A stretch of DNA of 64,000 bases from Alphaproteobacteria bacterium (GTDB lineage: Bacteria > Pseudomonadota > Alphaproteobacteria > JAUHZY01). The position numbers and the translations under genes were made by a program. The stretch covers positions 512,551 to 576,550 of the forward strand of contig JAUHZY010000001.1 of assembly GCA_030425825.1 (NCBI GenBank), written 5' to 3'. This document shows, in pieces, positions 2,998-58,874 of the stretch. Every line of letters starts with the position of its first letter. Position 1 is the stretch's first letter. Below the pieces are notes generated by a model. It was not told the DNA's origin. It saw only the letters and a list, made by a program, of their open reading frames with translations, and ran no database searches.

Positions 2998-4488
2998 ATG
3001 AGTGTATTTGGTGCGATGACGACGGGTGTATCTGGGCTGAAAGGCTTTGGCGGCGCTTTGAATCATATCTCTGAGAATATATCGAATGTGACGACCTTGG
3101 GTTACAAGCGTGTTGAGACACGTTTTTCAACGCTTGTAACGACGTCGACATCACGAGTTCATAATGCAGGTGGTGCGAATATTAAGCCTTCTTTCAGGAT
3201 CAGCTCTCAGGGTCTTCAACAACAATCTGACGTATCGACACACTTATCTGTAACAGGTGAAGGGATGTTTACGGTCACAGATCAATTGCCTGTTTCTGCG
3301 ATTACATCTTATGGTCGGAACTCGTTTTATACGCGTGCGGGTGATTTTATTGTTGATCAAGATGGGTATTTGAAAAACGGTGCGGGATATTATCTGCAGG
3401 GTTGGACAACAGATTCAAGTGGTGATGTGATTAACACCTCGCAATTGGCACCATTGCGTGTCACAGATATTGTTGATGCACCAATGCAGACAACAACGAT
3501 TGATTATAATGTGAATGTGCCATCCGGGGCACCACAGCCCGCTGCAGCTGATCTTGCGGCGGCAGCAAATCCAGCAGCGATTACAGGGGATAGCACTCAC
3601 CCATCTTATGATTCTGTTTTTGGCCCGAACCAAATTTTGGTTTATGACTCACTTGGTGGCGAGCATTCGATGACGCTTGATTGGACAAAAGTTCCTGCTG
3701 CGAACGCTGTTGGCGCAGGGTCTGCTTTTGGGAACAATGCGAATCCTAATAAATGGCTTGTTTCAATGACACCTACAACAAGTTTGGCAGGTGCGACAAT
3801 TACAACACGTTTTACAACAGAGGCTAGTGGGGTGCCTGCGGACTTAGCACAGCGAGAAATCGGTGTTGAGTTTGCTGCCGATGGATCTATTGTTGGGATG
3901 TGGAAAAACGAAGATGCAAATGTATATGGCGCCGGTGGTTGGGGATCAATGATTGCATTGCCTTCAGCGGCAGTTGAATTAGATCTAACATATGGTGGCA
4001 CATATCTACCAACAAGCCCACAAACAATCACCATTGATTTTGGCACCTTGAATGCAACATCAGGCTCAACAACACAGTGGAACGAGCCAGATATTTCGAT
4101 CAGAAACTTCTTGCAGGATGGCAACCCTGCTGGTGCGGTTGAAAATATTGATATTGATGGCGAAGGTCTGATCAATCTGAATTTTGATAATGGTAATTCA
4201 ACGCCACGCTATAAAATTCCTATTGCACGTTTTGCAAACTATAATGGCCTTCAACTGATCGACGGCAATGCCTACCTTGCAACCAGCTTTTCTGGTGATG
4301 CCTTTTATGCAGCAGCAGGCGATAACGGGCTGGGAACAATTACATCAAATAATCTTGAGCTGTCGAATGTTGATTTGGCAGACGAGTTCACAAAAATGAT
4401 CGTTGTACAAAGAGCTTACAGCGGCAATGCACGTGTCGTGACAATCGCTGCGCAATTGCTGGAAGAAGTCACCGCAATTACACGATAA
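2998..4488 (+). CDS. flgE: flagellar hook protein FlgE
   Basis: N-terminus MSVFGAMTTGVSGLKGFGGALNHISENISNVTTLGYKR and C-terminus SNVDLADEFTKMIVVQRAYSGNARVVTIAAQLLEEV match the conserved rod/hook terminal segments. A 496-aa length fits a hook protein. Confidence 0.85.
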   Translation: MSVFGAMTTGVSGLKGFGGALNHISENISNVTTLGYKRVETRFSTLVTTSTSRVHNAGGANIKPSFRISSQGLQQQSDVSTHLSVTGEGMFTVTDQLPVSAITSYGRNSFYTRAGDFIVDQDGYLKNGAGYYLQGWTTDSSGDVINTSQLAPLRVTDIVDAPMQTTTIDYNVNVPSGAPQPAAADLAAAANPAAITGDSTHPSYDSVFGPNQILVYDSLGGEHSMTLDWTKVPAANAVGAGSAFGNNANPNKWLVSMTPTTSLAGATITTRFTTEASGVPADLAQREIGVEFAADGSIVGMWKNEDANVYGAGGWGSMIALPSAAVELDLTYGGTYLPTSPQTITIDFGTLNATSGSTTQWNEPDISIRNFLQDGNPAGAVENIDIDGEGLINLNFDNGNSTPRYKIPIARFANYNGLQLIDGNAYLATSFSGDAFYAAAGDNGLGTITSNNLELSNVDLADEFTKMIVVQRAYSGNARVVTIAAQLLEEVTAITR

Positions 4489-17673: not shown

Positions 17674-18183
17674 TTAGATCAAGCCATAATACATTGCTAA
17701 ATGTTCAAGGGCCAGGCGCAGTGTTGTCATACCTTCGATTTGGGCTGTGCGTCCTTTGCGTCCTTTCAAAGTGGCCCAATCACCCGCAGTATCTTCTAGA
17801 CAACAAACATGTATCAAGATAGGAGACAATGCGCGCCCTATATCTCGGATTGTTGTGCGAAAGCGTTCTTGTGCTTCTAGTCGTGACTCGGTTTCTGATC
17901 CTTGGCTGCTTGCCAGGCGTCCTGTCATAAGTGTTTTATAGCTTGCCGTCATTTTGGGCGATAAGCCTGCATAAAGAAAATCAGCATGCAGTTTTTTGCC
18001 GGCTTCATATTGAAACTTTGTAATTTGGTCGCGGCGGAAATAGCGTTCTAATGGCGCAGATGTCATATTTCTTGCGCGGCTTTGACCATTTTTAGGGGTC
18101 TCTACAATCATCTCAAAATGTTGTGCCATATATGCGCTGCCGTAATCATTTGCGTGAGATTGTATATGGGGTGTATGGGACAT
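17674..18183 (-). CDS. hypothetical protein (169 aa), phage-like early region
   Basis: ORF in a minus-strand block that also contains an XRE regulator. Confidence 0.4.
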   Translation of the reverse strand: MSHTPHIQSHANDYGSAYMAQHFEMIVETPKNGQSRARNMTSAPLERYFRRDQITKFQYEAGKKLHADFLYAGLSPKMTASYKTLMTGRLASSQGSETESRLEAQERFRTTIRDIGRALSPILIHVCCLEDTAGDWATLKGRKGRTAQIEGMTTLRLALEHLAMYYGLI

Positions 18184-18241
18184 TTCATTCTCCTTTTGGT
18201 TTCGTCTTCAGATGCCAGCATGGCTTTGTTATGTGCGGGGT

Positions 18242-18835
18242 TTATGCCTTTTTAATATCAAAATCTAACTCGCGGACCATGGGGTAGTGCTTGCGAATGA
18301 TTAAAAGGAGCAAGTCCCCGTAATTTGTTTGGCACCACCGGCGGTTTAGGTCTTTATCAAATTGTAATACGGCATTTTCACCTGTGATTTTCAAATGTGC
18401 TTTTTGCAACCAGCTGCGAAACTTTGCGATTTCTAAATGCTCGAGCAAGTCGCGTTTCCATGGTTCAGAAATGCTTTCAGGTTGTATGCGGGTTTGATGG
18501 ACTTGGCAAGCTTCCACAATTTTGCCAACAGTGGGCCAGCGATACGTTGTGTTTTCTTTTACAACGTCTCGCCAACCTTGACGGAGCGCGTCATGAGGGA
18601 TATGCGAAAGGGCCTCAATATACGCGTTGGCGATAATGGCAGATTGCTGATTCAATTCTTTTTCATCAGCCATGATAGGGGGGTAATACATAATCAGCAT
18701 TTCAAGCAAAACAGTATCCCAAATTTTTTGCAGTTTTTCTTTGTCCAAGCAAAGAGATTCTAAAAGACGTTTTGTCGTCATAAGATCAGGTTTATAGCGG
18801 ACCCTATGTGATTTTGCGGTAGATTTCAAAGTCAT
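18242..18835 (-). CDS. hypothetical protein (197 aa)
   Basis: ORF only. Confidence 0.4.
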   Translation of the reverse strand: MTLKSTAKSHRVRYKPDLMTTKRLLESLCLDKEKLQKIWDTVLLEMLIMYYPPIMADEKELNQQSAIIANAYIEALSHIPHDALRQGWRDVVKENTTYRWPTVGKIVEACQVHQTRIQPESISEPWKRDLLEHLEIAKFRSWLQKAHLKITGENAVLQFDKDLNRRWCQTNYGDLLLLIIRKHYPMVRELDFDIKKA

Positions 18836-19376
18836 TGATTTCCTCCTTTACGGCATGATCTGTATTTATATTTTTATAAGTATCTTCTTTATGTATTGTG
18901 CGTTTGTTTGTGTGTGAGTTTGTGTTTGATGACGTGTTCGAGCGCCTTGCCATTGCTGTCATTGGCGCAGTTGATAATCTGTGTGAATCATTGTGTGCAG
19001 GTTTGAAAAGGTGATCCTTATAATCTGTAATTGTTAAAACCGTTCCCTGCACTTTGTGTGCGTCTAAACTTGCAAGGTTGCTTTGTTGAATGCGCTTTAA
19101 AAACATGCGTGCTTTGTGCTCGGTAATATCAAATAAAGAAGCAATAAGGCGCGATGTAATATAAAGTTGACCTGCTTTTAGCTGGATGACGCGTGTCGAA
19201 GGCTGGGTAAGAGAAATCTCAAAGTCTTCCCAAGCCGCCATTTCGCATATCCACCCCCAAATTGCAGATTCGGTCATGTCTTTGAAAATGGGATTATACC
19301 ATTTGTCTCGAAATGTCTTTGTGAAACCACGACGTGGATAATAAGGAGGTGGTAACGGCTTTTTATAATACATCAT
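18804..19376 (-). CDS. hypothetical protein with a possible winged-helix DNA-binding segment (190 aa); possible phage replication-associated protein
   Basis: GQLYITSRLIASLFDITEHKARMFLKRIQQ resembles HTH segments of phage replication initiators. The match is weak. Confidence 0.35.
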   Translation of the reverse strand: MMYYKKPLPPPYYPRRGFTKTFRDKWYNPIFKDMTESAIWGWICEMAAWEDFEISLTQPSTRVIQLKAGQLYITSRLIASLFDITEHKARMFLKRIQQSNLASLDAHKVQGTVLTITDYKDHLFKPAHNDSHRLSTAPMTAMARRSNTSSNTNSHTNKRTIHKEDTYKNINTDHAVKEEINDFEIYRKIT

Positions 19377-19382
19377 CTGCCC

Positions 19383-19625
19383 CTAGTCGTTGCGTTCGCG
19401 CAGTAATAAGTCATAACCCAGTGCATTTACGCAGGCTTCAAAGTTCATCAAATTAGGCGTGCCATTCCCGTGTTCCCAAATCAGAACGGCGTTTCTATTA
19501 AGCCCTGCATGTTTTGCCAGTCTCTCTTGAGAAACATTCTTTTTTTTGCGAAGCTCATGAAGCTTGCGTATAAGAGGGTGGTTACTTTTGCAGATACCGC
19601 GCTTTTTTGTGTTTTTTTGAGTCAT
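19383..19625 (-). CDS. XRE-family (Cro/CI-type) HTH transcriptional regulator
   Basis: KKNVSQERLAKHAGLNRNAVLIWEHGNGTPNLMNFEACVNALGYDL is a canonical HTH_XRE pattern. 80 aa. Confidence 0.65.
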   Translation of the reverse strand: MTQKNTKKRGICKSNHPLIRKLHELRKKKNVSQERLAKHAGLNRNAVLIWEHGNGTPNLMNFEACVNALGYDLLLRERND

Positions 19626-19884
19626 TTAAGACCTCCTCTGTTTGATAGGTTAAGTAGTCTCGCCAGTGGTGGCGATAGTTAAGAAAAGATTTTTTTAATC
19701 CTTCTTTTAGTAGATCTTCTTCTTCAGGAGACAAACAGCATTTCTTCAAAAAGCGTAAATTATGAATATTTTTTATGATCTCAGATTTCCACATTTTTGC
19801 CATAACTTGAGATTTATAGCCTTTGTGTTGCCCGCTTAGGTGGCGTGGAATGCGTCCGTCATATTTTAAACTTAATGTGTTCAT
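19582..19884 (-). CDS. hypothetical protein (100 aa)
   Basis: ORF overlapping the XRE gene start. Uncertain. Confidence 0.3.
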   Translation of the reverse strand: MNTLSLKYDGRIPRHLSGQHKGYKSQVMAKMWKSEIIKNIHNLRFLKKCCLSPEEEDLLKEGLKKSFLNYRHHWRDYLTYQTEEVLNDSKKHKKARYLQK

Positions 19885-20188
19885 ATCCTTCTTCCTTGAG
19901 CAACAAATTGCAATAAATGCAACCTGCGCGTCAAGAGAAAATGACTATGACCGTATAAGTTTCAAAATGTAAATAATAAAGAATATTTGTTACTTATATA
20001 TTAAATATCAACTACTTAAAGTTAAGACTTTATTGTGATGTTTAAGATGTTTTCCTATAAAAAGCAGGGGAACTTTTTTTATACAATTTCATTTTGCGCA
20101 ATTTATAATTGTATAAATTTCATAGTGAGATAAAATATTTCTTAATTTGAGAATTCATGTTCTTGGATAGGTTTGCTGGGAATAGGGG

Positions 20189-21649
20189 TTATAGACCTTG
20201 TAGTAATTGTAAAATAGCATTCTCGTGTTGCGCAGCAAATGACAGGTTATTGATTTGCAGCTGACTGCGTGTTTGAAGTGATAGGTTGTTGGCTGCTTCT
20301 TCTTCTAAATCGGCAAGAGTCAGTTTGTCACCGGCTTCCAGGTTGACGTTAGACACCTGGTCAGCAAACGAAAAGCGATTTTGCAAAATGCCATAATCAG
20401 ACACAAAATAAGCTTCTGCTGCATCAATACGGTCAAGCGCACCATTAATTTGATTCAATGTCGTTTGTATGTTTGCATCTGTAAAATCGACAGTCCGTAA
20501 AGATAAAATCACAGTGCGTAAATCAAAATTATCAATAAGGTGGTTCGTATCTTTGCTAAGTCGTATATCAATGTGATCCTCGTACTCAAGCGAAGCATCA
20601 ACAATGTCGGGGTTTCCATAGGCCGCAATATAGTTGTCAGGAACATTCCCTGCCATGTCTACATATCCATTGGGCAGATCGCCACGAAATGCTGCAACCA
20701 AGTTGTTTGCTTGTGAATGTTCTGGTGCATCAAGAATATTACCACCATTATAAAGCTCTGTAATCTCAGCAGGCGTAAGGTCGGTTGAAAACAGATCAAC
20801 TTCGGGAATTGTTCCCATATGGCGTCTTGTCGCTTGCGTCGTGCTCATGCCTGTCATTTCTGTGCTTATGCCCGCGCCGGCAGGGATAACTTGGGGCGCG
20901 CCAACCTGGACACCATTACGGTAATAAGTAACTGTGGCACCATTTCTAACAAAGCTCATCATATGTAGGTTGCCATCATCCACGCCAACATCATTGGGGA
21001 AAACAACAAAGCTTGATCCGCCGTTAGCTCTGTAATAAATATCATCGCCGGCCATATAAATAAGATAGCCGTTAGCGTTGTTGTTAGATAAAGGGTAGGA
21101 TTGGTTTGCAGCATTAGGCTCATACGACATCCACATATTGACAGTGTTTGTTGTCCCTAAGTCAATCGGATTGCCGCCATTGTTATCCACACGCACATAG
21201 TCATCAACGCCATCATATTGTGGGCCACCAACATCGTCTGTTAAAAGGTTTATGCCATCTTTGTTTGAATCAAGTAAAATATCATCATATTCACGCAGCA
21301 ATTTGTTCGCATCAGGTTCTAGCAGTACAGCATCAGCTTCGCTGAGATTAAGCGCTTGTGTTGCTAGCCCTTTTACAGCTTCCATCACAGTTCTTGCTGC
21401 GGTAATGCCATTTTGTGTGACTTGTAATGTTGAAATGCCTTGGCCGATAGCGTCTTTGCGGCTCAGCATAAAGCTGGATGTATCGTATTGTGTCTCTGAC
21501 AAAAAATAGGCAGGGGCGTTGTCTAGAACCTCTGCAACTTTTTTTCCTGTCGCAAGACGTGCATCAGTTCTGTCGATATATTGTTGTGTTCTTCGAAGGG
21601 CAATTAGTGCGTTACGAGATGCCTCACTTAATCTGATTGAATCAACCAT
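20189..21649 (-). CDS. fliC: flagellin with a LamG_3 (concanavalin-like) module replacing the hypervariable domain
   Basis: Flagellin N-terminus (NALIALRRTQ...RLATGKKV...DNAPAY) and C-terminus (LTLADLEEEAANNLSLQTRSQLQINNLSFAAQHENAILQLLQGL). The central segment YDGVDDYVRVDNNGG...NTVNMWMSY...LHMMSFVRNGATVTYYRNGV...FSTDLTPAEITELYNGGNILDAPEHSQANNLVAAFRGD is homologous to RTX residues FDEVDDYIRLDGG...AQFRDG. GAGG RBS. Confidence 0.8.
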   Translation of the reverse strand: MVDSIRLSEASRNALIALRRTQQYIDRTDARLATGKKVAEVLDNAPAYFLSETQYDTSSFMLSRKDAIGQGISTLQVTQNGITAARTVMEAVKGLATQALNLSEADAVLLEPDANKLLREYDDILLDSNKDGINLLTDDVGGPQYDGVDDYVRVDNNGGNPIDLGTTNTVNMWMSYEPNAANQSYPLSNNNANGYLIYMAGDDIYYRANGGSSFVVFPNDVGVDDGNLHMMSFVRNGATVTYYRNGVQVGAPQVIPAGAGISTEMTGMSTTQATRRHMGTIPEVDLFSTDLTPAEITELYNGGNILDAPEHSQANNLVAAFRGDLPNGYVDMAGNVPDNYIAAYGNPDIVDASLEYEDHIDIRLSKDTNHLIDNFDLRTVILSLRTVDFTDANIQTTLNQINGALDRIDAAEAYFVSDYGILQNRFSFADQVSNVNLEAGDKLTLADLEEEAANNLSLQTRSQLQINNLSFAAQHENAILQLLQGL

Positions 21650-21694
21650 TTAAACCTCGTCTAAAATAAATCAAAATATACCTTGTGTCTGTCA

Positions 21695-21710
21695 TGCATA
21701 TTTTGTGCCA
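21695..21710 (-). promoter_or_regulatory. sigma-54 type promoter (-24/-12) for fliC1
   Basis: Minus-strand sequence TTGGCACaaaatATGCA matches TGGCAC-N5-TTGCA, about 45 bp upstream of the fliC1 ATG. Confidence 0.45.
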
Positions 21711-21756
21711 AAGTTTCTTATGTGTTTTATGCGTTATCTTGTTTGGAAGAGGGCGC

Positions 21757-23238
21757 TTATGACCTGCCCCCAAACAAGATATCAATCAAGTTCTGTATTG
21801 ATCGGTTTGAGTTCGTCATTGAGAAAATGCTCAATTGCTCACGTGTCTCAAGAGCCAATCTATTCGCAGATTCTTCTTCTAAATCTGCCAGCGTCAGTTT
21901 ATCGCCTGCTTCTTCATGCGTGTTGATCAGATCTTCTGTGAACTCAAGGCGGGTTTGTAATAATGCAAAGTCTGTTGCAAAGCTGGCAGCAGTGCTGTCA
22001 ATCCTATTCAGGGCAGCGTCAAGTCCATCAAGTGTGGCGTCTAAACCTGCGGAAGAAAAATCAACACCCACAATCCCTAATGAGAAAGTTCGCATATCAA
22101 CAGAGTGAATTGTGTGTGTTGTGTTGTCACTAAAATCAACGATCAGATCTTCTGCATACTCACCTGCTGTCGGCGCATCTGTGTTGGCCCAGAAATCAGA
22201 TAAGTTTGCATTTTGAATCGTGCCATCATTTCCATTTCCTGAGCTGTCATATGCTGTCGTACCATTTCCTTCGTCTAATGGCCAATAACCTTCTAGGCTG
22301 GATCCTGGAATAGCGCCACTGGTGTAAAGTGTTGCGACTTCTGATGGTGTAAGCGCTTCATTCCAGAGGCCTGTATTGGACATAGACCCCTCAAAAAATG
22401 GCCCGCCTGGCTTCAAGGCACCAATTGTCATATCAACAGTGGGATTGTGCATTGATGTAATGGGGTCATCGTCGTTCATAACAACAGCAGCCTCTGCGCC
22501 ATCAACATACAATCTTAAGTCACCATTATCCCAAGTGAAGCCTACATGGTGCCAATTGCCGTCATTAATAGGAACGGTTGTCTCATAGTTCTTGCTTGTT
22601 CCATAAGTGCCATCACCACTAATCAAGACATTAAGCTCACCAGATGCTGTCAGGCCTAGATAAAATCCTCTTTGATTTCCACCTTGTTCATAATGGCCTG
22701 TCATATATGATGATGTGTCTGTTGTTTGTACCCAAGTAAAGTTTGATAAATCGGTTAAGCTATGGCCAATATCTCCAACGTTTATGTGATCATTTACTCC
22801 ATCAAATGTTGCGACAAAATCTTCTTCAACAAGTAAGTTTGTGCCGTTCATATGCGTATCAGCAATAAGGTTGTTATACTCACCCAGTAGTTTATTAGCT
22901 TGCGCTTCTAGGATGGTTCTCTGTGCTGCAGATGCATTGCGCGCTTCTTCAGCCAGACCCTTGACCTGCTCAATGATGGCGCGACCACTGGTCAGGCCAT
23001 GCTGCGTTGCTTTCAACGTACTGATCGCTTGATCAATATCGTCTTTGCGTTTCAGTAGGCTATCCGCCTTGTCATAAAGGCCCTTCGCTTTGAAGTACTC
23101 AACAGGACCGTCCAGAATGTCGTTGACCTTCTTACCTGTCGCCAGGCGCTTCTCAACAGTCGCTGTCAGATCCTTGATCTGTTGATGGTTCAACAAGCTG
23201 TTTCTCATCGCGGAAGTGAGCTTAATGTCATTGATCAT
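21757..23238 (-). CDS. fliC: flagellin with a LamG_3 module replacing the hypervariable domain
   Basis: Start MINDIKLTSAMRNSLLNHQQ preceded by a GGAGGTGGG RBS. The ORF-track start at 23292 lacks an RBS. Flagellin N and C termini (LTLADLEEESANRLALETREQLSI). The insert FDGVNDHINVGD...LYVDGAEA...LEGYWPLDEGNGTTAYDSSGNGNDGT is homologous to the first LamG module of the RTX protein. Confidence 0.8.
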   Translation of the reverse strand: MINDIKLTSAMRNSLLNHQQIKDLTATVEKRLATGKKVNDILDGPVEYFKAKGLYDKADSLLKRKDDIDQAISTLKATQHGLTSGRAIIEQVKGLAEEARNASAAQRTILEAQANKLLGEYNNLIADTHMNGTNLLVEEDFVATFDGVNDHINVGDIGHSLTDLSNFTWVQTTDTSSYMTGHYEQGGNQRGFYLGLTASGELNVLISGDGTYGTSKNYETTVPINDGNWHHVGFTWDNGDLRLYVDGAEAAVVMNDDDPITSMHNPTVDMTIGALKPGGPFFEGSMSNTGLWNEALTPSEVATLYTSGAIPGSSLEGYWPLDEGNGTTAYDSSGNGNDGTIQNANLSDFWANTDAPTAGEYAEDLIVDFSDNTTHTIHSVDMRTFSLGIVGVDFSSAGLDATLDGLDAALNRIDSTAASFATDFALLQTRLEFTEDLINTHEEAGDKLTLADLEEESANRLALETREQLSIFSMTNSNRSIQNLIDILFGGRS

Positions 23239-23470
23239 GACCCACCTCCATATGCTAGAGCAACATCTCGCGATGAGCTTATGATACGCCACGCGCTACG
23301 CGCTTCGGCTATGAGGGCGGAAGTGAGCTTAATGTCATTGATCATGACCCACCTCCATACGTTAGAGCAACATCTCGCGATGAGATGATGATACGCCACG
23401 CGCTACGCGCTTCGGCTATGAGGGCGGAAGTGAGTTTAATGTCATTGATCATGACCCACCTCCATATGTT
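23205..23470. repeat. tandem direct repeat of about 107 bp x3 (about 2.5 copies), spanning the fliC2 RBS, start codon and first 8 codons
   Basis: gcggaagtgagcttaatgtcattgatcatgacccacctccatatg...cgcttcggctatgagg recurs starting at 23211, 23318 and 23424 with a few substitutions. Confidence 0.85.
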
Positions 23471-23811
23471 GTGTGCAGACACAAAACAGTACGCAGGAGC
23501 AAGCCCATGGCATCTGCCATGTTCTCTTTCCTTCTAAACTGTCTTGCGCACATCTTCAGCACGTTATTCTCCAATTTTCTGCACGAGATCTACCAACTAG
23601 AACTCGATACCGAGTTCTATTCAGAAGCAGTGCCAAAATGCATTTTTGGGTGTTTTTTTTGGTGTGCAGAAAAATGGGAAAATGTATTTGTGGATTTTAA
23701 TGCAACATCACGTGTGGCTTTGATGTGCTATGTAGATTTATTTTCTGATGGTTGTTTTTCAATTGCACGCTAGTTGCGTGTGCCGCTGTAAGGGGGCGCT
23801 GCGTGTTATTT

Positions 23812-24519
23812 TTATAGATAGCTGAATTGGGCGATAATACGTCCTTTGACCTGAATATTTTCAGGTGTACAGCAGTAATCTTCATAATTTGGGTTGTTGC
23901 AAGAAACCTTAAGGGTGCTAGATGATTGGTTTGTTAGAAGTTCTAGGCGCTTTATACGATAACCAACATCATCCCAAACAAGAAAAAAACCAGGAGGGCT
24001 GGGCTGGCAGTTAAGCGTATCAACCAACACCTTTGTACCCAAGGGAAGCTGAGGCGACATGCCGTCATCTCGGACTGTCATCATAAATAAGTACTTTAGG
24101 CTTGTCTTCGTTCTATTTTCAATAAAGTTAAGAGGAAGTTGCCAGTGGTTCACAGCATTGCAAGAGGGGTCTTCTAGATCAGAAAAATCGTTGATTTCCT
24201 GGATGGTTATCATTTTCTGATAAGGGTTTTCAAAGGCAACAGCCTCTTCACGAACAGCATTGTTGTTGGCTTCAAAATAGCTGGTGCTAATATTAATGCC
24301 TGCATGATGCATGACATCTGGAATGGAGGCGTCTATAAAAGCAGCGATAGAGCCCATTTCATGTAAGCGCAATTGTCGGTTGCCTTTAAGCATTCGAGAG
24401 ACTGCAGATGGTTCTATGTTGAGGTGTTTCGCAAGGTCAGCCTGTGTTTTACCTTGGTTTTTCAGTTTTGTTTTAAACCATCTTGCGTCCATAAAAACTT
24501 CCCATGATTTGTTGCTCAT
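23812..24519 (-). CDS. cI/LexA-like repressor: N-terminal XRE HTH plus C-terminal S24 peptidase domain
   Basis: GKTQADLAKHLNIEPSAVSRMLKG (HTH). The C-terminal GMSPQLPLGTKVLVD...VGYRIKRL pattern is typical of S24 self-cleaving repressors. The start may instead be at 24492 (MDARWF). Confidence 0.7.
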   Translation of the reverse strand: MSNKSWEVFMDARWFKTKLKNQGKTQADLAKHLNIEPSAVSRMLKGNRQLRLHEMGSIAAFIDASIPDVMHHAGINISTSYFEANNNAVREEAVAFENPYQKMITIQEINDFSDLEDPSCNAVNHWQLPLNFIENRTKTSLKYLFMMTVRDDGMSPQLPLGTKVLVDTLNCQPSPPGFFLVWDDVGYRIKRLELLTNQSSSTLKVSCNNPNYEDYCCTPENIQVKGRIIAQFSYL

Positions 24520-24742
24520 TCACCATTCTGTGCCGCAAGAAAAGGCACAAAACAATCCTCTGCATTCTTATTTCGCCATGGCTAACAAAAAAAAGATTTA
24601 TACAGACTAGCAATAAAGCAAGCTGATAAACAAGAAGGAATTGTTTTTTCTGCCTTTTTAGGGGGGGGAGAGTTATTACACTTCGCTAGGACGTGATAAT
24701 AAAGGAATTTAGGCTTCGCATAAAGTCTGTGTGTAGGCAGCG

Positions 24743-26476
24743 TTAGAACTTATACGTCAAACCCATAGAAAAGACTGGGTATATATCAGCGCCAGCAATA
24801 TCTTCTTCGATTTTTGCTTCTTCAGCTGCCAAGCTTGCTTGGAAAGTTGGATCATTTGCGGCTGTTCCGTTGCTTGTGAAGGCAATATCAGCAGAGCCGC
24901 TGAACAAAACCCCAAGGCGACTGTTAAAGCTAAGCCCTGTGCCAAGAATGCCATTGTCATAAAATGTTGAGTCAAAGCCAACGCCAACATATGGCGCAAA
25001 GTCATCAAAGCTTGCTTTGCCGTTTAAGGTGCCAACTTCTGATGCTGTATAAATTGTGCCACCCAGGTCGTATGTGCTGCTTGGGTCGGATATTAAGGTT
25101 GCTTCATTGCCGTTCCAGTAAATTCCTGCAGACATGTTAAACCCTGATTTAAAGGGATGCCACTCTGCCACGACACCAAGGTTAGAAAGGTCTAGATCCA
25201 AGTCGTAATCGACATCATCATAAGATTCGCTCATTGAGTGGCTAAATGCGTTTGCACCTGCGCGTAAAACCCACCTTGGACTGATATGTGCCATCAAGTC
25301 ACCACCAGCGCCGAGCGTTCCCACTGAAAGTGCTAGGGCATAACGTGTGTCGAAGTCTTCATCGCTTTCGCCATACTCAACGAATTTAACATCTTCTGTT
25401 TCATACTCATATTTCTTAATGCTTAACTGAGCGTGCTTTGGAATATGGTCTAGGCTTTGAACCTTTTTCACACGTCCCTGTGCATCACGGTAAAACTCAT
25501 GACGACCTTGCCCTTCTTTGCTGGGCATCAAAACAGGCTGTGAAGGTAATTGGCGAGAAGGCTGCAACATGGGCGCATAAGCAGGATGCATGGCCACGGG
25601 AGGGGCATAACCTGGGCGCATTTGATGAAATTGACCGCCATACATGTCAGTTTGTGGCGGCATTTGTTGTTGTGGTTGAGATTGCCTTTGTTGATAAGGG
25701 TCTTGTCGATAACCATAATCTATCTGCGGCTGTTGGGCGCGATGCTGTGTCACATCTTGGACGATTTGTGTCGTGTTCATTGGTTGATCAGACGCACCTT
25801 GCTTTTTCCATGCAGGCTTTGCTGATTCGACATACTGATTTTGAGGTTGGTAAGAGGGCTTTTGGCGTACTTGCAGCGGTGATCCCGTATTCATTTGATG
25901 CATAGGTGGGTTTCCTGACATTGCATCTGGACGCTGTAATCTTTGGTCGCGTTGCTCAACAGCTCTGTTCATCCAGTTTTTACGCTGCGTAGGCGGCACA
26001 TAAAAAGGTTTTTGAGATGTGTTTGTGCGCTCAGAAAATCTTAAATTATTAGATGAGGATGATCTTTTAAACTCTTGAAATTCTTGTCGACTTCTCTCGA
26101 TATAGCTGTCCACTTTTCTTTGAGGTGAAGTGTTTGAAGCAAGTGCCGTATTCGCAGATGAGTACGGCACTTTATTAGGGCGCTCAGATATGGGCAGTGT
26201 GTTAGAAGCATCTGGGCGCGCCGAATATGTTTGTATGTTTTTTTGATAGCTAGGCGTTGGATAGCCTGTGTTATATCCTTGTGCTGTGGCGATATCATCA
26301 CAAACCAATAAAAGGAAAAAAGCGATAGCAACAACTCTGGAAATGCTTATTCCAGCAGAAGATATTCTTTTAAGCTGTTGAAGTTTAAGGAACAAATTGA
26401 TCTCCAAGAAATAAGAGGCATGCGATATGAAATTCTGGATGAGAAAGAAGATACTAAAAAACCGACCTTTAGGCAA
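24743..26476 (-). CDS. secreted outer-membrane beta-barrel protein with a long P/Q-rich linker
   Basis: C-terminal alternating beta pattern ending GLTYKF with a terminal Phe. The signal-peptide-like segment KRISSAGISISRVVAIAFFLLLVCDDIATAQG is internal to the ORF-track model, so the likely start is a TTG near 26395 with a GGAG RBS. Q/P-rich middle region. Confidence 0.5.
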   Translation of the reverse strand: MPKGRFFSIFFLIQNFISHASYFLEINLFLKLQQLKRISSAGISISRVVAIAFFLLLVCDDIATAQGYNTGYPTPSYQKNIQTYSARPDASNTLPISERPNKVPYSSANTALASNTSPQRKVDSYIERSRQEFQEFKRSSSSNNLRFSERTNTSQKPFYVPPTQRKNWMNRAVEQRDQRLQRPDAMSGNPPMHQMNTGSPLQVRQKPSYQPQNQYVESAKPAWKKQGASDQPMNTTQIVQDVTQHRAQQPQIDYGYRQDPYQQRQSQPQQQMPPQTDMYGGQFHQMRPGYAPPVAMHPAYAPMLQPSRQLPSQPVLMPSKEGQGRHEFYRDAQGRVKKVQSLDHIPKHAQLSIKKYEYETEDVKFVEYGESDEDFDTRYALALSVGTLGAGGDLMAHISPRWVLRAGANAFSHSMSESYDDVDYDLDLDLSNLGVVAEWHPFKSGFNMSAGIYWNGNEATLISDPSSTYDLGGTIYTASEVGTLNGKASFDDFAPYVGVGFDSTFYDNGILGTGLSFNSRLGVLFSGSADIAFTSNGTAANDPTFQASLAAEEAKIEEDIAGADIYPVFSMGLTYKF

Positions 26477-26512
26477 TCTGTTTTTCCAGACAATGCCGCA
26501 TCAAGATAACCC

Positions 26513-27085
26513 TTAACGTCCGTATTTCTGAATAAACCCCTCTGCTTGCATGATTTTATGATATTGTGAAGGGGAAAGATTATTGTAATTCAATTGTATA
26601 TCAATGTTTTCAATGCCGCTGTTAGTGTACTCGGTGTATTTTGTTGGTAGCATAGACCCAGATTCGTACTCCACTTCGATTAAACTGTCGACAGTTGATA
26701 GAAGGAGATGTCCTGAATCAAGCTCTTGAAAGTTACCAATTTCTAAACGGTAAAGCGTATAATGTTCATCAGAGCTGTTGCCTTGAATCTCAATCAGGCT
26801 TTTTCTTCGCATCACACCATTTGTTGTATCAAATTTAGAAAATCGAAAGAAATCTTCTTTCTGACCATCGCTTTCGGTAATGCTTGTCTTTGAATCTTGG
26901 CAAGAGTCTAAGAGAGATTTTTCAAAAGGGCGTATAGAGGAAGCATTGTCGCTAACGCTTTGAGAGCTTTCAGAAACAAGCTTGGAAGCATTGCAGCCCA
27001 TCATTAGAATGATGCTTGTCAGGCCACCCCATAATATTGATGTATATTTCATTTTCGCACCTTTTTTCTTTTTTAATAGCATCAA
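26513..27085 (-). CDS. putative lipoprotein
   Basis: MKYTSILWGGLTSIILMMGC has lipobox LMMGC. The likely start is the Met at 27052. Confidence 0.5.
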   Translation of the reverse strand: MMLLKKKKGAKMKYTSILWGGLTSIILMMGCNASKLVSESSQSVSDNASSIRPFEKSLLDSCQDSKTSITESDGQKEDFFRFSKFDTTNGVMRRKSLIEIQGNSSDEHYTLYRLEIGNFQELDSGHLLLSTVDSLIEVEYESGSMLPTKYTEYTNSGIENIDIQLNYNNLSPSQYHKIMQAEGFIQKYGR

Positions 27086-27317
27086 TAATCCTATATGGCA
27101 ACAATTTTGACTTGTTTTACTGCCTTATGATAGGGGTGCGCTTTGTTTAACCGCGTTAATAGATATTTCCTTGAAGGTTTATATAAAACAAGCAGACCAA
27201 AAAATCACAAAAGTTAATGTGCTTAAAAAATAGTCATATTATCTCTTTTCCTATTCCGAGAAATATGTTATAGTCCATGACCCATATTGGTTAAAAGATG
27301 TTTGAGAGAGAGTTTTT

Positions 27318-27989
27318 ATGGAACAAGACGAGCCACTAACAGAAAAAGAGATGCGTAAACTCATGCGCCTTTTAACACGCCTTAACAAACCTAAGAAAAA
27401 AGAACCGGCATTATCAAAAAAAGAGATGCGTAAGCTAAATCATCTTTTGGCATCATACCGCAGGCTTGAAACCTCTTTGGTCGCAGGTAAGTATGGGGTT
27501 GCGCCAATCAAATCTCTGCACCCAAAAGCAATTATAGGGTCTTTGGACAATGTTTTTCCTTTTTTAATTCATGGTAGGGAAAAAGCACAAGATTTACGCC
27601 AGGGTCACTTTAAGGGCGCTTTTCATGCTATAGAGGTATCCCATCCTAACCTTGTAACCGTAATGATCGATTCGCTGAAGCGTACAAACTATGAGGGGCT
27701 TGCAAGAATGTTAGCGCTGTCTTTAAATATAGATCGCCGAGGACAGCGTGAAAAAACAGTTGAGGCTTTGAAGGGAGCCTTGGCAAAGAGTGAAGGATGG
27801 AATAAAGAAAGCAAAGCGGCTGTGCAAGCAGGATTATTTCACTACCATAATAACCACAAAAAAATAAAAGTTAGAGACTTGCCGGCAGATAAGTCAGAGG
27901 TAACGATCAGCGAAGAAGCTGAAATGACAGGTGTTAAAGTTGAAGCTTCTCTTGTCGTTGGTGATAAAAAGAATACGCGTACACATTAA
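27318..27989 (+). CDS. hypothetical protein (223 aa)
   Basis: ORF only. Confidence 0.45.
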   Translation: MEQDEPLTEKEMRKLMRLLTRLNKPKKKEPALSKKEMRKLNHLLASYRRLETSLVAGKYGVAPIKSLHPKAIIGSLDNVFPFLIHGREKAQDLRQGHFKGAFHAIEVSHPNLVTVMIDSLKRTNYEGLARMLALSLNIDRRGQREKTVEALKGALAKSEGWNKESKAAVQAGLFHYHNNHKKIKVRDLPADKSEVTISEEAEMTGVKVEASLVVGDKKNTRTH

Positions 27990-28040
27990 CTGTATTGCGT
28001 AAGTAAAATAAACATAAAAACATTAAATGGCACAAAATAA

Positions 28041-36234: not shown

Positions 36235-36432
36235 ACGCGACTGCGCGACGTTGCTGGTGCAACGAAAGCCTGCGTGGGTGAGCGCTAAATATAAATAAAG
36301 AGCGCGACTGCGCGACGTTGCTGGTGCAACGAAAGCCTGCGTGGCGAACGCTAAATATAAATAAAGAGCGCGACTGCGCGACGTTGCTGGTGCAACGAAA
36401 GCCTGCGTGGCGAACGCTAAATATAAATAAAG
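36235..36432. repeat. three tandem 66-bp direct repeats (iteron-like) immediately upstream of the terS-like gene
   Basis: agcgcgactgcgcgacgttgctggtgcaacgaaagcctgcgtggcgaacgctaaatataaataaag repeated three times. Each unit contains the inverted repeat cgttgc-TGGTG-gcaacg and a TATAAAT-like box. Confidence 0.85.
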
Positions 36433-36454
36433 AGCAAGGGAGGTACTTACACTT

Positions 36455-47686: not shown

Positions 47687-48481
47687 ATGCAAAACATGAT
47701 TTTTGACATTCCAGGACAACCAAGATTAACAATCCCCAAAACAAATGGCCCTGCCATTCGCCAAGCTATGGAGGCACAGCGCAAAGCAATCCAAGCGCAG
47801 AATCAGTGGAATCACTCTGATGCAGCATATGAATTTATTAAAAGGCATGAGAAGTATCGCCCTTATCCATATTTGGATACGAGAGGAAATGTGACCATAG
47901 GTGTTGGGACGATGGTGCCTGATGAATCTGTGATGATAGATACGCCGCTTGTTGATTTGCTTGGCAACCCTGTATCAAGAAAACAGCGTGGACAAGTCTT
48001 TCGTGATATAAAGGCATTGTGGCAACAAGAGAAATATAGAAACTTACAAGCGGAATATTTCCCAAATCCACATAAGGTGACTTTACCTGAGTCAGAAGCC
48101 GATCGTATCGCAAGAAAGTATATAGAAGAGGAACTGCCTCACATTAAAAATAAATTCCAAGGATTTGATACTCTGCCTGATGCTGCAAAAACAGCTATTA
48201 TCGACATGCAGTATAACTTAGGAGATGCAGGATTTCAGCGGACGGTTCCTGAGGGATCGAACAAAACGCCGTGGCCAAATTTTTATAGTGCAATTGATGC
48301 GCGTGATTTTGAAACTGCTGCCCGTGAAGCAAGTCGTAAAGGCATTGGCCTTGGGAGGAATCAAGAAACCCAGCAATTATTGATTGACGCCGCCAAAGAA
48401 TGGCAGCAACAGCAATCACAAAAGCCTGTTGCGCCAACACCAGAAGCGCAAGAGAAAGGCGGACTGTTATCTTTTTTCTAG
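47687..48481 (+). CDS. GH24 (T4-type) lysozyme-like protein, copy 1 of 3
   Basis: FIKRHEKYRPYPYLDTRGNVTIGVGTMV matches the catalytic E...D...T...TIGxG motif of phage-type lysozymes. AAGGAG RBS. The start is set at MQNMIFDIPGQ. Confidence 0.7.
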   Translation: MQNMIFDIPGQPRLTIPKTNGPAIRQAMEAQRKAIQAQNQWNHSDAAYEFIKRHEKYRPYPYLDTRGNVTIGVGTMVPDESVMIDTPLVDLLGNPVSRKQRGQVFRDIKALWQQEKYRNLQAEYFPNPHKVTLPESEADRIARKYIEEELPHIKNKFQGFDTLPDAAKTAIIDMQYNLGDAGFQRTVPEGSNKTPWPNFYSAIDARDFETAAREASRKGIGLGRNQETQQLLIDAAKEWQQQQSQKPVAPTPEAQEKGGLLSFF

Positions 48482-48955
48482 AGGTTTATGGTGATACACT
48501 GAGAAGTGCCTGTCATAAGTCGGTTGATAATCATAGCGACTTTTAAGCCTTCTTAAAGCATCACCATAATATTTCCATGATCCAGTAGAGATTGAGACTC
48601 TTTCCCAAGGTTGGCGAAAGCTCGAGATTTCTAGTCGTTTAAGAAAGCCTTCTTTTACGCTGGGTGGCAAGTCAGTATAGTCAAAATCGTCTGGAAATAT
48701 TCTATAGCACTGCAAAACCAGAACTTTTTCACCATTGTGAATAAGGTAGGGACAATTCAGGTCGAAAACTTCATATTTATTTTCATAGGTGATTTTTGTT
48801 TGTGAGACTGTCATTTTGCCACCTGCTGCAGGGCTTGGATGCCACACGCCATAAAACTCTTTATTTTTAAAAGGTTCTGTTAAAGGCGGATCGGGTGTAT
48901 CTGCATAGATACCCAGTACAATTAAACCCACAAAGAACATCAGAAAATATTTCAT
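48467..48955 (-). CDS. secreted partner protein with signal peptide (candidate immunity protein or lysozyme inhibitor), copy 1
   Basis: MKYFLMFFVGLIVLGIYADTPDPPLTEPFKNKEFYGVW is conserved in all three copies. The 3' end overlaps the lysozyme gene by 15 bp, convergently. Confidence 0.6.
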   Translation of the reverse strand: MKYFLMFFVGLIVLGIYADTPDPPLTEPFKNKEFYGVWHPSPAAGGKMTVSQTKITYENKYEVFDLNCPYLIHNGEKVLVLQCYRIFPDDFDYTDLPPSVKEGFLKRLEISSFRQPWERVSISTGSWKYYGDALRRLKSRYDYQPTYDRHFSVYHHKPLEKR

Positions 48956-49024
48956 GGATCAAGTTTAACCACAGGTTGTGATGTGTGCAATCTGTTTGTT
49001 TTATTAACCAAGGAGAGATTTTAA
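48956..49024. promoter_or_regulatory. conserved divergent intergenic spacer (family A), copy 1
   Basis: accacaggttgtga..gcaatctgtttgttttattaaccaaggagagattttaa shared with 50243-50311 and 51548-51613. Confidence 0.6.
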
Positions 49025-49786
49025 ATGAAAAATATGATTTTCGATATTCCAGGACAGGCAAGGCGTGTTATTCCTTTGTCTGATAAGCAAGCTATTATAA
49101 ACGCACAAATTGCACATAGAGAGGCAATGGATCAACAGAAAGCACAGGGCAGCTGGAAATATTTGGACCAGGTATTTGATTTTATCAAAGAACATGAAGG
49201 AGGAATTGTTCCAGCTCCATATCTTGATACAACAGGAAATGTAACAGTTGGTATTGGTCACAGAGTGCCAAATGCGCAAGCTATGACCAAGTTGCCTTTA
49301 GTAAATCCATTAGGTCACGATGTATCTGATGAAGTAAAACGACAGGCTTTTGATGCTGTGTATGGATTGCGTGAAAAACAAGAATATCACAATAAAATTG
49401 CTAAAAAGTTTCCAAGCCCATACAAGGTTCGATTACCAGATTCAGAAGCAGTACGCATTGCCAAAGAGTATATCAACAATGAATGGCCTTTGGTTCAGCA
49501 CAAGTTTAATGGTTTTGATACATATCATCCTAAAGCACAAATGGCTGTGATGGATATTCAGTATAACATCGGGAATAAAAATTTTTCTCAAGAGAAATGG
49601 CTAAAATTTTATGATGCAATGGCACGGCGAGATTATGAGTCTGCGGCCGTAGAGTCTCATCGCAAGGATGTTGGTCAAAATCGGAATGAAGAGGTGCGAA
49701 AGCTATTGCTTGAAGCAGCAGAAGAAACACGTGCGCAAACAAAGTCGCCTTCGAATGATGTTGATTTACTTGGAGAATGGTTTTGA
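49025..49786 (+). CDS. GH24 lysozyme-like protein, copy 2
   Basis: FIKEHEGGIVPAPYLDTTGNVTVGIGHRV. The N-terminal 45 aa are identical to copy 3. Confidence 0.7.
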   Translation: MKNMIFDIPGQARRVIPLSDKQAIINAQIAHREAMDQQKAQGSWKYLDQVFDFIKEHEGGIVPAPYLDTTGNVTVGIGHRVPNAQAMTKLPLVNPLGHDVSDEVKRQAFDAVYGLREKQEYHNKIAKKFPSPYKVRLPDSEAVRIAKEYINNEWPLVQHKFNGFDTYHPKAQMAVMDIQYNIGNKNFSQEKWLKFYDAMARRDYESAAVESHRKDVGQNRNEEVRKLLLEAAEETRAQTKSPSNDVDLLGEWF

Positions 49787-50242
49787 TGTTGTTGAGGTTG
49801 GGCGATAGTAATATCCTTCAAAACATTTTGAGTAGAGCATGTCTGGTTGGTAGGAAATACCAAAGAAAGCACCCGCATATGTATCGCAATAGCTGACTGA
49901 AAGGCTAACACCTTTATCTAAGTATCGAGGTTTTTTGATTGCGAGGCGAATCAATTCATACTTTGTTTCGCCGTAAGGGTATTTGACGAGGCATTTCAAA
50001 ATAACGTCTTGTTTCCCGTTATACAAAAGATAGGGACATTCTTCATATGAATCGTTCTTTTCAAATGAGATGCCTGTCTGTGTGATGGTCATTTTCCCCG
50101 CGGCAAGAACAGACGTGCTGCTTGCTTCCCACACACCATAAAACTCTTTATTTTTAAAAGGTTCTGTCAAAGGTGGATCGGGAACATCTGCGTAGATGCC
50201 CAGCACAATAAGACCAACAAAAAACATCAGAAAATACTTCAT
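49766..50242 (-). CDS. secreted partner protein, copy 2
   Basis: Same signal peptide and N-terminal 40 aa as copies 1 and 3, with a diverged C-terminal part. 21-bp convergent overlap. Confidence 0.6.
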   Translation of the reverse strand: MKYFLMFFVGLIVLGIYADVPDPPLTEPFKNKEFYGVWEASSTSVLAAGKMTITQTGISFEKNDSYEECPYLLYNGKQDVILKCLVKYPYGETKYELIRLAIKKPRYLDKGVSLSVSYCDTYAGAFFGISYQPDMLYSKCFEGYYYRPTSTTSKPFSK

Positions 50243-50311
50243 GTAATCAGCATAACCACAGGTTGTGACTTGCGCAATCTGTTTGTTTTATTAACCAAGG
50301 AGAGATTTTAA
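50243..50311. promoter_or_regulatory. conserved divergent intergenic spacer (family A), copy 2
   Basis: taatcagcataaccacaggttgtgacttgcgcaatctgtttgttttattaaccaaggagagattttaa contains the palindrome TTGCGCAA. Confidence 0.6.
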
Positions 50312-51085
50312 ATGAAAAATATGATTTTCGATATTCCAGGACAGGCAAGGCGTGTTATTCCTTTGTCTGATAAGCAAGCTATTATAAACGCACAAATTGT
50401 ACATAGAGAGGCAATGGATCAACAGAAAGCACAGAAAAACTGGAAGCATTTAGACAATACGTTTGATTTTATTAAGATTCATGAGGGAGATATTTCACAA
50501 ACACCTTACCTTGATACGACAGGCAATGTAACAATCGGTATTGGACATAAAGTAACAGATGCCGAAGCGATGGTGAAACTGCCATTGGTTAATCCGCTGG
50601 GACATGATATTTCAGATGATATGAAGCGACAGGCTTATCATGAGATTTATGAATTGCGTAATAAGCCTGAGTATAAGAATCGTGTAAATGGTTCATTTCC
50701 TAATCCTTACAAAGTAAAATTACCAGATGCAGAAGCTGTCCGTATGGCAAAAGAATACATCAATAATGAGCTGCCTTTAGTTCAAGATAAGTTTAATGAT
50801 TTTGATACTCTTCATCCCAAGGCACAAACAGCGATTATGGATATTCAGTACAATATTGGAAATAAAAATTTTTCTAAAGAGAAGTGGCCAAAGTTTTATA
50901 CGGCAATAGATCAACGTGACTATGATACCGCAGCGGCAGAATCTCATCGTAAGGATGTTGGGATAGAGCGAAATAAAGAAGTAAAAAGGTTGCTGCTTGA
51001 GGCAGCAGAAGAAATAAAGGCGGGTGCGATCGCAGCACCAACTCAAAACAATAGCACTAGTGGATTACTTGGTGAATGGTTTTGA
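50312..51085 (+). CDS. GH24 lysozyme-like protein, copy 3
   Basis: FIKIHEGDISQTPYLDTTGNVTIGIGHKV. Confidence 0.7.
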   Translation: MKNMIFDIPGQARRVIPLSDKQAIINAQIVHREAMDQQKAQKNWKHLDNTFDFIKIHEGDISQTPYLDTTGNVTIGIGHKVTDAEAMVKLPLVNPLGHDISDDMKRQAYHEIYELRNKPEYKNRVNGSFPNPYKVKLPDAEAVRMAKEYINNELPLVQDKFNDFDTLHPKAQTAIMDIQYNIGNKNFSKEKWPKFYTAIDQRDYDTAAAESHRKDVGIERNKEVKRLLLEAAEEIKAGAIAAPTQNNSTSGLLGEWF

Positions 51086-51547
51086 AGGAGGGGATGACTC
51101 TTTGTAGTAATATCCGCCACCACAATTTGAATATTTCATATATGGTTGTGAGGTAATGCCAAAAAAAGCACCGCTATATGTTTCGCAAAACCTTACATGA
51201 AGCATAATATTTTCATTTGAGTATTTTGGCCTTTCGAGAGAAAGACGTATAAGCATCAATTCTTGTGGCGCAAAGCCATCAGGATAATATGTCTTACATT
51301 GAAGGACAATATCTTGTGAACCATTATACAAAAGATAAGGGCATTTTTCGTAGGAATTGTTCTTTTCAAACGAAATCTTCGTTTGCGCAATGGTTATTTT
51401 ACCTGCGGGTCGAACCGTATTACTTATAGGTCTCCACACGCCATAAAATTCTTTATTTTTAAAAGGCTCTGTCAAAGGTGGATCGGGAACATCTGCGTAG
51501 ATGCCCAGCACAATAAGACCAACAAAAAACATCAGAAAATACTTCAT
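51065..51547 (-). CDS. secreted partner protein, copy 3
   Basis: MKYFLMFFVGLIVLGIYADVPDPPLTEPFKNKEFYGVW. Confidence 0.6.
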   Translation of the reverse strand: MKYFLMFFVGLIVLGIYADVPDPPLTEPFKNKEFYGVWRPISNTVRPAGKITIAQTKISFEKNNSYEKCPYLLYNGSQDIVLQCKTYYPDGFAPQELMLIRLSLERPKYSNENIMLHVRFCETYSGAFFGITSQPYMKYSNCGGGYYYKESSPPSKPFTK

Positions 51548-51613
51548 GTAATCAGCATAACCACAGGTTGTGACTTGCGCAATCTGTTTATTTTATTAAC
51601 CAAGGAGGAAAAA
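51548..51613. promoter_or_regulatory. conserved divergent intergenic spacer (family A), copy 3, here driving the portal gene
   Basis: Near-identical to 50243-50311 up to the RBS (aaccaaggagg). Confidence 0.6.
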
Positions 51614-55195: not shown

Positions 55196-55259
55196 AAAGC
55201 AACTTTAACAACCAGCAATTGAAAAAACTATCTTTTATTTTACCAATGGAGACCACCTA
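55196..55259. promoter_or_regulatory. conserved divergent intergenic spacer (family B), copy 1
   Basis: ataaagcaactttaacaaccag.aattgaaaaaactatcttttatttta recurs at 56200, 57987 and 59727. Confidence 0.6.
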
Positions 55260-55400: not shown

Positions 55401-55401
55401 C

Positions 55402-58871: not shown

Positions 58872-58874
58872 TTT

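Follow-up and report, generated by a model that had tools for sequence, protein, structure and literature searches.

The tandem array described here lies on the minus strand of a 64,000-nt stretch of contig JAUHZY010000001.1 (positions 512,551 to 576,550, assembly GCA_030425825.1; hereafter the window), where it precedes and runs into the start of a flagellin gene. The host is an uncharacterised low-GC alphaproteobacterium, and the best named relatives of its FlgE, in genera of the Rhodospirillales and Acetobacterales type, share 36% identity with it at most. The gene (21757–23238, minus strand) encodes a flagellin-family protein of 493 aa, 100% identical to protein P0001, with a Flagellin_N domain (33 bits against a cutoff of 26.6), a Laminin_G_3 domain in the middle and C-terminal helices resembling those of flagellins. 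As the termini are 35–47% identical to proteins carrying PF00669 and PF00700, both of the helical regions by which a flagellin is recognised are present. A scan of the contigs of representative genomes with this protein, the window species not being among the representatives, returned only matches to the LamG domain, at 24–36% identity. When metagenomes were scanned for ATGATCAATGACATTAARCT, the six matches were all due to chance and none was a flagellin. An alternative reading of the gene as a 511-aa ORF, extended N-terminally to a GTG at 23292, was rejected because all paralogs and relatives start with MINDIKL or MSDISL.

The array itself occupies 23210–23468 and is reported by Tandem Repeats Finder with a period of 107, 2.4 copies, 96% matches, no indels and a score of 483. 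It is built from a 45-nt segment, A, present three times at a spacing of 107 nt (A1 at 23424–23468, CATATGGAGGTGGGTCATGATCAATGACATTAAACTCACTTCCGC; A2 at 23317–23361; A3 at 23210–23254), and from two copies of a 62-nt spacer, B (B1 at 23362–23423; B2 at 23255–23316), so that the order on the gene strand is leader-A1-B1-A2-B2-A3-flagellin, with A3 as the initiation cassette of the actual flagellin gene. Within the window, the 28-mer GGAGGTGGGTCATGATCAATGACATTAA of the 45-nt segment is found three times, against none in 100 shuffles, and a 36-mer of B is found twice, again against none in shuffles. The repeat is 95–96% identical overall; when the two full units are compared, 5 of 107 positions do not match, among them the pairs 23387/23280 and 23385/23278. 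The array is thus a head-to-tail tandem repeat of constant period and high identity, well above chance. A preliminary description of the locus had spoken of a tandem triplication of about 107 bp; the repeat is real, but it comprises 2.4 units, A-B-A-B-A, and not three complete ones. The same description held that the ribosome-binding site, the ATG and the first eight codons had been copied along, and they have, although the copied stretch extends slightly further, through the ATG, eight codons and 2 nt, giving ten identical residues (MINDIKLTSA).

Segment A has the sequence CATATGGAGGTGGGTCATGATCAATGACATTAA(A/G)CTCACTTCCGC and holds the Shine-Dalgarno (SD) sequence GGAGGTGGG, the ATG and codons 1–10. 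The SD core GGAGGUGGGU is predicted to pair with ACUCACUUCC in codons 7–9, with the AUG in the loop, forming a hairpin of 10–11 bp and about -15 kcal/mol (-15.1 kcal/mol for A1, -15.4 kcal/mol for A2). Since such a structured initiation region is predicted at each start, with computed opening energies of 12–16 kcal/mol, direct initiation would be expected to be hindered. Read one frame over, the same stretch encodes (Y/F)GGGS followed by UGA, that is, the last codons of a preceding ORF, and the flagellin paralogs of the window genome likewise end in ...ILFGGGS*, like the tails of these upstream ORFs (uORFs).

Each A therefore carries the end of one reading frame and the beginning of the next. 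uORF1 (23342–23452, minus strand; MINDIKLTSALIAEARSAWRIIISSRDVALTYGGGS), identical to protein P0124 and present among the called genes of the protein collection, has 36 codons and a TGA that overlaps the ATG of uORF2; uORF2 (23235–23345, minus strand; MINDIKLTSALIAEARSAWRIISSSRDVALAYGGGS), identical to protein P0121, has the same length and a TGA that overlaps the ATG of the flagellin. Upstream of both lies a leader ORF, ORF0 (23449–23553, minus strand), of 34 codons from the ATG at 23553 or 23 codons (MADAMGLLLRTVLCLHTTYGGGS) from the ATG at 23520, which ends in a TGA overlapping the ATG of uORF1. The second of these ATGs is contained in a perfect 6-bp hairpin, CAUGGC-AGAU-GCCAUG (23506–23521, minus strand). 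All three junctions, ORF0/uORF1, uORF1/uORF2 and uORF2/flagellin, thus have the form ATGA, and at each of them the SD of the downstream frame lies inside the preceding one, GGAGGTGGG being the last sense codons of every upstream ORF. That the two upstream copies encode short minus-strand ORFs ending in GGGS had been recognised in the preliminary description and is borne out, and the translational coupling it put forward is in keeping with this geometry and with the conservation of the layout in two related lineages. For annotation, the two 36-codon ORFs count neither as genes in their own right nor as promoters.

The comparison with these lineages, both metagenomic and represented by loci L081 and L088, suggests what the ancestral arrangement would have been. 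The window, L081 and both flagellin genes of L088 have a leader ORF whose end falls on the start of the flagellin, at +4, +4 and +8, respectively. The L081 leader ORF, MMAVMCLCAPIGSVCHDTFQGGGL or a 36-codon version of it, stops on the flagellin ATG, while both L088 genes are preceded by a 44-codon leader ORF that ends 8 nt into the flagellin. Only 6–9% of shuffled leaders give such an ORF (a chance of 0.06–0.09 per leader), and the leader peptides have diverged across the lineages while the ORF geometry has been kept. The L081 leader also shows ACAUGA...UCAUGU, analogous to the hairpin around the ORF0 AUG, and four flagellin starts of L081 and the more distant L088 are predicted to form SD-sequestering hairpins analogous to that of A. 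In L081, moreover, two tandem flagellin genes are joined by ATGA, with the tail of the first (...QGGGL*) supplying the SD of the second, and the same junction sequence also precedes the first gene. A is thus the usual junction between the tail of one flagellin gene of this family and the head of the next, and in this clade it is the standard start region of flagellin genes. Neither L081 nor L088 has B at all. The single-leader version is already present in related bacteria, and the array is in this respect a modest variant of known translational coupling.

Transcription of the array is best considered against the same relatives. A sigma-54-like motif, TGGCAC-tgctt-CTGA (23621–23635, minus strand), is the putative promoter of the leader/array/flagellin transcript, and the pattern TTGGCAY-N5-NTGA is common to the flagellin upstream regions of the window, L081 and both L088 genes. 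The distance from motif to ATG is 190 nt in L081 and 177 nt in both L088 genes, and in the window it is 183 nt when measured to the ATG of A1. Transcription thus appears to be of the sigma-54 type and to start upstream of the whole array. As the conserved motif stands at its ancestral distance from the first A, A1 would hold the ancestral start position and the two 107-nt units would be part of the transcript, placed after that position and ahead of the gene body. The motif of the neighbouring paralog, TGGCAC-N5-ATGC at 21696–21710, is canonical. On the gene strand between 23100 and 23850, neither a sigma-70-like site nor a terminator-like site was found.

Two further elements accompany this motif. 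A palindrome, TAGAACTCG-gtat-CGAGTTCTA (23598–23619, minus strand), follows it directly, and a comparison of the window with both L081 promoter copies (~2433–2455 and ~2524–2547) shows the arms kept and the centre variable, as TAGAACTC-N6-GAGTTCTA; possible roles are those of an operator or of an RNA hairpin at the 5' end of the transcript. Upstream of the first L081 flagellin gene (~2415–2550) the block of promoter and palindrome is itself duplicated in tandem, with copies ~91 nt apart. In the window, a 14-nt inverted repeat, CCAATTTTCTGCAC / GTGCAGAAAAATGG, 93% complementary (23571–23584 and 23664–23677), brackets the putative flagellin promoter and may be an activator or repressor site.

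Spacer B has a GC content of 55%, against 40% for the window, and searches for its source returned nothing. Comparison by blastn-short with the window and all 88 loci, Smith-Waterman alignment on both strands with the leader, the flagellin gene and the neighbouring paralog, and comparison of its six-frame peptides with 13 flagellin paralogs all gave scores at or below shuffle expectation; no copy of B occurs in the viral contigs, and no Rfam match at E <= 1 lies within 19000–28000. A likeness between AEARSA in the spacer peptide and AEEARNA in flagellin residues 96–103 was dropped, as it amounts to a 10-nt match with E = 28. The predicted fold of the spacer consists of two small hairpins that are unremarkable in stability and lack a U-run; a transcription attenuator controlled by a leader peptide was discarded on this ground, together with the lack of a terminator-like site on the gene strand noted above.

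B does recur on the contig. When 5.8 billion proteins were searched with the 54-aa GTG-extended form of uORF2, six small ORFs were recovered, all of them on the same 1.66-Mb contig. Two are the window uORFs (P0124 and P0121), and the other four B-containing ORFs (P0122, P0123, P0125 and P0126) are not encoded in the window. P0122, P0125 and P0126 are variants of the form MINDIKL[T/I]SALIAEARSAWRIII[L/S]SRDVGTTYGGGS, while P0123 is a leader ORF fused directly to B (MADVMGLLLRAVLCLHTS-LIAEARSAWRIISSSRDVALTYGGGS). All six keep the frame open to GGGS*. As these six variants share one contig with at least six flagellins, the A-B unit therefore appears to be a recurrent component of the flagellin loci of this genome, in arrays of differing composition. 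We rejected the idea that B is a dispersed repeat of the repetitive extragenic palindrome (REP) or miniature inverted-repeat transposable element (MITE) kind, as there are only two copies in the 64-kb window and none in viral contigs, and the other copies on the contig are all joined to a flagellin-type A or to a leader.

The flagellin genes around which these units are found appear themselves to have been reshuffled. The window gene is adjoined by a more divergent paralog at 20189–21649, and the contig encodes at least six flagellin paralogs (P0001, P0003, P0004 and P0006–P0008) whose first ~60 and last ~60 residues are near-identical, while their central domains are unrelated, being either LamG-like or similar to the PF10282 beta-propeller. 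Near-identical termini with swapped middles indicate that these genes have probably undergone concerted evolution by recombination and domain swapping. At the 3' end of the window gene (21755–21771, minus strand) there is a degenerate copy of the 5' part of A (GGGGGCAGGTCATAAGC versus GGAGGTGGGTCATGATC), a decayed SD/ATGA junction which suggests that a coupled flagellin gene may once have followed.

We favour, with somewhat more confidence than doubt, the explanation that the array is a recombination-amplified translation-initiation cassette, which makes a relay from ORF0 through uORF1 and uORF2 to the flagellin. In this lineage, the flagellin start would normally be reached by ribosomes that translate the short leader ORF0 and terminate on AUGA. 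The array would add two units, each an A with a 62-nt B, between the ancestral start and the gene body, creating a relay of four ORFs with overlapping stops and starts (23–34 codons for ORF0, 36 each for uORF1 and uORF2, and 493 for the flagellin). At each step the terminating ribosome would sit on AUGA, within the hairpin that otherwise would hinder direct initiation. The units may have arisen and spread through duplication, or through unequal homologous recombination between A segments, within a flagellin family that evolves in concert, and they would persist because each regenerates an open, in-frame, coupled ORF. The expected effect would be a quantitative shift in the number of ribosomes that reach the start codon of this paralog, with no on/off switch and no extra promoter; the role of the array is thus probably to tune translation and not to switch it. 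What the sequences show directly is the repeat, the ORFs and their overlaps, the predicted hairpin, a leader-ORF and promoter layout shared with the relatives, and further copies on the contig; from these we infer transcription from the upstream motif, translation of the small ORFs and the coupling between them, the recombinational origin of the units, and the direction and size of the effect.

Several observations weigh against this explanation. B is without a detectable source, and the coupling is deduced from sequence geometry alone. Folding gives no direction of effect, as the computed opening energies are similar for all five start sites (12–22 kcal/mol), the true flagellin start and those of the uORFs included; the z-scores of the SD hairpins are modest (-1 to -1.9), and their pairing registers differ among the window, L081 and L088, making the hairpins analogous structures and not column-by-column covarying ones. 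The uORF peptides carry no sign of purifying selection, for among the nucleotide changes that separate the two copies 2 are synonymous and 3 non-synonymous. Finally, the upstream promoter motif has a perfect TGGCAC and the right spacing, but its -12 element is TGA and not TGC, in all five related promoters.

A stronger form of the relay can also be envisaged, in which obligatory termination and reinitiation of leader ORFs through the SD hairpin gates flagellin synthesis, and in which the relay module (hairpin, start and 36-codon spacer ORF) has become, in this genome, a cassette of variable copy number that recombination spreads among the paralogs, the share of each in a mixed filament depending on the number of ribosome entry or relay steps ahead of it; we consider this rather improbable. 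Feedback on export or translation might also come from the mini-proteins, with their ten N-terminal residues of flagellin, or from the complementary boxes of B described below.

The array might also be a neutral scar of a recent tandem duplication or unequal crossover, with no regulatory consequence, its ORFs being open only because the gene would fall silent if the chain were broken, or simply for want of time since the event. The protein collection lends this some weight, as no B-like ORF was found outside the window genome among the 5.8 billion proteins, and the units may therefore be a recent and effectively neutral by-product. Concerted evolution of the paralogs implies that recombination is frequent, the changes in the uORF peptides are mostly non-synonymous, and, for a unit of 107 nt (3n+2), we estimate the joint chance of 22 codons free of stops at roughly 0.1. 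Yet the two copies have diverged at 5 of 107 positions, all six distinct B-containing ORFs on the contig keep the frame to GGGS*, and the coupling layout that the units reproduce is conserved across lineages, so that two added relay steps are unlikely to be silent. A scar without effect is thus unlikely in our view. Another explanation places the function in the RNA, with uORF translation irrelevant: the array would be a decoy or binding array for a regulator of the FlbT/FlaF or CsrA/FliW type, or would mask the true start by cis-antisense pairing. Here the spacers are suggestive. B1 and B2 contain perfect complements of 10 nt (23376–23385) and 9 nt (23269–23277), respectively, to CGCGAUGAGA, codons 9–12 of the flagellin (23203–23212, minus strand), and this target is present only in the real flagellin and absent after the uORF copies of A; in the predicted fold of B2, A3 and the gene, the pairing of the B box extends the SD hairpin. 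Every A contributes a GGA-containing SD, and FlbT and CsrA are known to target flagellin mRNA leaders. The complementarity was noticed post hoc, however, and is only modestly significant (a 9-nt complement was matched by 47 of 5000 shuffled B1 sequences, the target region used lacking one base of the 10-mer, and an 8-nt one by 150 of 5000 shuffled B2 sequences). The GGA lies in a stem and not in a loop, Rfam has no match, and flbT, flaF, csrA and fliW are all absent from the window ORFs scanned, which together make an RNA-level role quite improbable.

The preliminary description had proposed that every unit carries a sigma-54-like GG-N10-GC element, so that the repeat multiplies the promoter, and that changes in copy number could make flagellin expression vary in a phase-like manner. 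Dependence of the flagellin genes on sigma-54 does seem to hold in this organism, and 107-bp direct repeats are in general substrates for unequal recombination. Of the spacers, only B2 (TGGCGTATCATAAGC) fits the pattern, B1 (TGGCGTATCATCATC) having no GC at -12. The internal -24 box, TGGCGT, scores 4/6 in both spacers, whereas TGGCAY is invariant in five aligned flagellin promoters and in the promoter of the neighbouring paralog, and the internal site is unlike TTGGCAY-N5-NTGA, which occurs once only, upstream of the array and at the ancestral spacing. The claim of a promoter in each unit is thus not supported, nor is that of promoter multiplication. Switching fares no better, as the ATGA relay stays intact with whatever whole number of units and yields no on/off result. 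A contingency locus acting by a shift of frame or spacing was discarded for related reasons: each unit brings its own ATG and TGA in a fixed register (107 = 3n+2), and the promoter lies upstream of the array. Since each unit is self-contained and preserves the frame, gain or loss of units could change only the level of expression. Taken as a whole, a promoter in every unit with phase-like variation is very improbable. An artefact of assembly, in which a repeat was collapsed or expanded, is highly improbable: the 5' ends of multi-copy flagellin genes are hard to assemble, but the copies differ at five positions, the 259 bp of the array can be spanned by a read pair, the contig is 1.66 Mb long, and different variants of the unit occur elsewhere on it.

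The neighbourhood of the flagellin pair resembles a mobile element, and a stretch rich in phage and ORFan genes adjoins it. A gene for a cI/LexA-like repressor (HTH_3 and Peptidase_S24; 23812–24519, minus strand) lies directly upstream of the flagellin promoter, and downstream of the pair there is a gene for a small HTH_3 protein (19383–19625, minus strand), followed by DUF6456 and DnaA_N-like genes (17674–18835). Other flagellar genes are also found in the window. FlgE is encoded at 2998–4488, and at least five hook-protein paralogs on the same contig (P0127–P0132) share 53–85% identity with this window copy, an unusual redundancy for a hook gene. Adjoining flgE, an 806-aa protein (389–2809) combines RTX calcium-binding repeats with Laminin_G_3 domains, the same LamG fold that is inserted in the flagellins.

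Elsewhere in the window, the only other strong tandem repeat (36236–36435; 66-nt unit, 3.0 copies, 97% identity) stops ~20 nt short of a plus-strand start region, with the SD GGGAGG and an ATG at 36456. Phage-type genes extend from 39339 to 53605 and include those for a large terminase (39339–40715), a protein with a GH108 lysozyme domain (42667–44730), two lysozyme-like paralogs (49025–49786 and 50312–51085) and an SU10-type portal (51383–53605, E = 6e-224). They are followed, at 54365–59726, by a run of similar-sized ORFs of 265–295 aa in alternating orientation. The three minus-strand ORFs 54365–55195, 57144–57986 and 58875–59726 have a Sel1 repeat at the same residues (100–135), and the other three, 55402–56199 (minus strand), 56260–57147 (plus strand) and 58047–58871 (plus strand), have no Pfam match. 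This arrangement suggests a locally amplified gene pair.

How bacteria with many flagellins dose their subunits is only partly understood, the known answers being promoter hierarchy and RNA-binding repressors such as FlbT and CsrA. The conserved overlap of leader ORF and flagellin, together with tandem amplification at particular paralogs, would add a layer of ribosome relay. Our literature search found no description of leader-ORF coupling or of a ribosome relay for flagellins. Control through flagellin mRNA leaders is described for FlbT/FlaF in Caulobacter, Brucella and Agrobacterium and for CsrA/FliW in Bacillus and Campylobacter (PMC6529632, PMC4894983 and PMC3930126). The present locus resembles those systems in having a structured flagellin 5' leader and SD in a multi-flagellin bacterium, and apparently in sigma-54-type transcription, as with the Caulobacter flagellins. 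It differs from them in that the mechanism proposed is a relay of ribosomes via leader ORFs, with no such regulator gene among the window ORFs scanned.

Translational coupling through overlapping stop and start codons (ATGA) is classically represented by trpE-trpD and trpB-trpA of E. coli. Coupling of a uORF to a main ORF has recently been documented in Sinorhizobium meliloti, which is also an alphaproteobacterium (PMC13285730). As in those cases, the upstream ORF of the array ends on the downstream start, the SD is embedded upstream, and a structured initiation region, here a predicted one, would be opened by the upstream ribosome. Unlike them, the upstream ORFs are tandem copies of the start region of the gene itself, chained three deep, and their coupling is read from geometry.

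The closest engineered parallel is the bicistronic design (BCD), with its synthetic leader cistrons, reported by Mutalik et al. in 2013. In the BCD layout, initiation depends on the unwinding activity of the ribosome rather than on local structure. An application of the design is described in PMC5995908. The array shares with it a short leader cistron that carries the target SD in its last codons and overlaps the target by stop and start, and a relay of the kind proposed here would be its natural counterpart. In contrast to the synthetic version, the array is natural, its layout is conserved in a flagellin clade, and in the window it has been multiplied in tandem.

Repeat number is also known to tune expression at contingency loci, as in the hmw promoters of Haemophilus influenzae with their 7-bp repeats. 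As there, the putative promoter of the array is separated from its gene by tandem repeats, and recombination could alter how many there are and so shift expression; the array unit differs in being 107 bp long, translated (by prediction) and frame-neutral. Tandem flagellin paralogs, for their part, are known to undergo concerted evolution and recombination, the example being flaA and flaB of Campylobacter. Near-identical termini and divergent middles imply recurrent recombination in the window genome as well, which could also duplicate a junction cassette, and the mini-ORFs would show that recombination in a concertedly evolving gene family can duplicate an initiation region without silencing the gene. 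Unlike the outcome at flaA and flaB, the product is not a chimeric flagellin but a set of mini-ORFs, each composed of the ten-codon head of a flagellin, an unrelated filler and a flagellin-like GGGS* tail.

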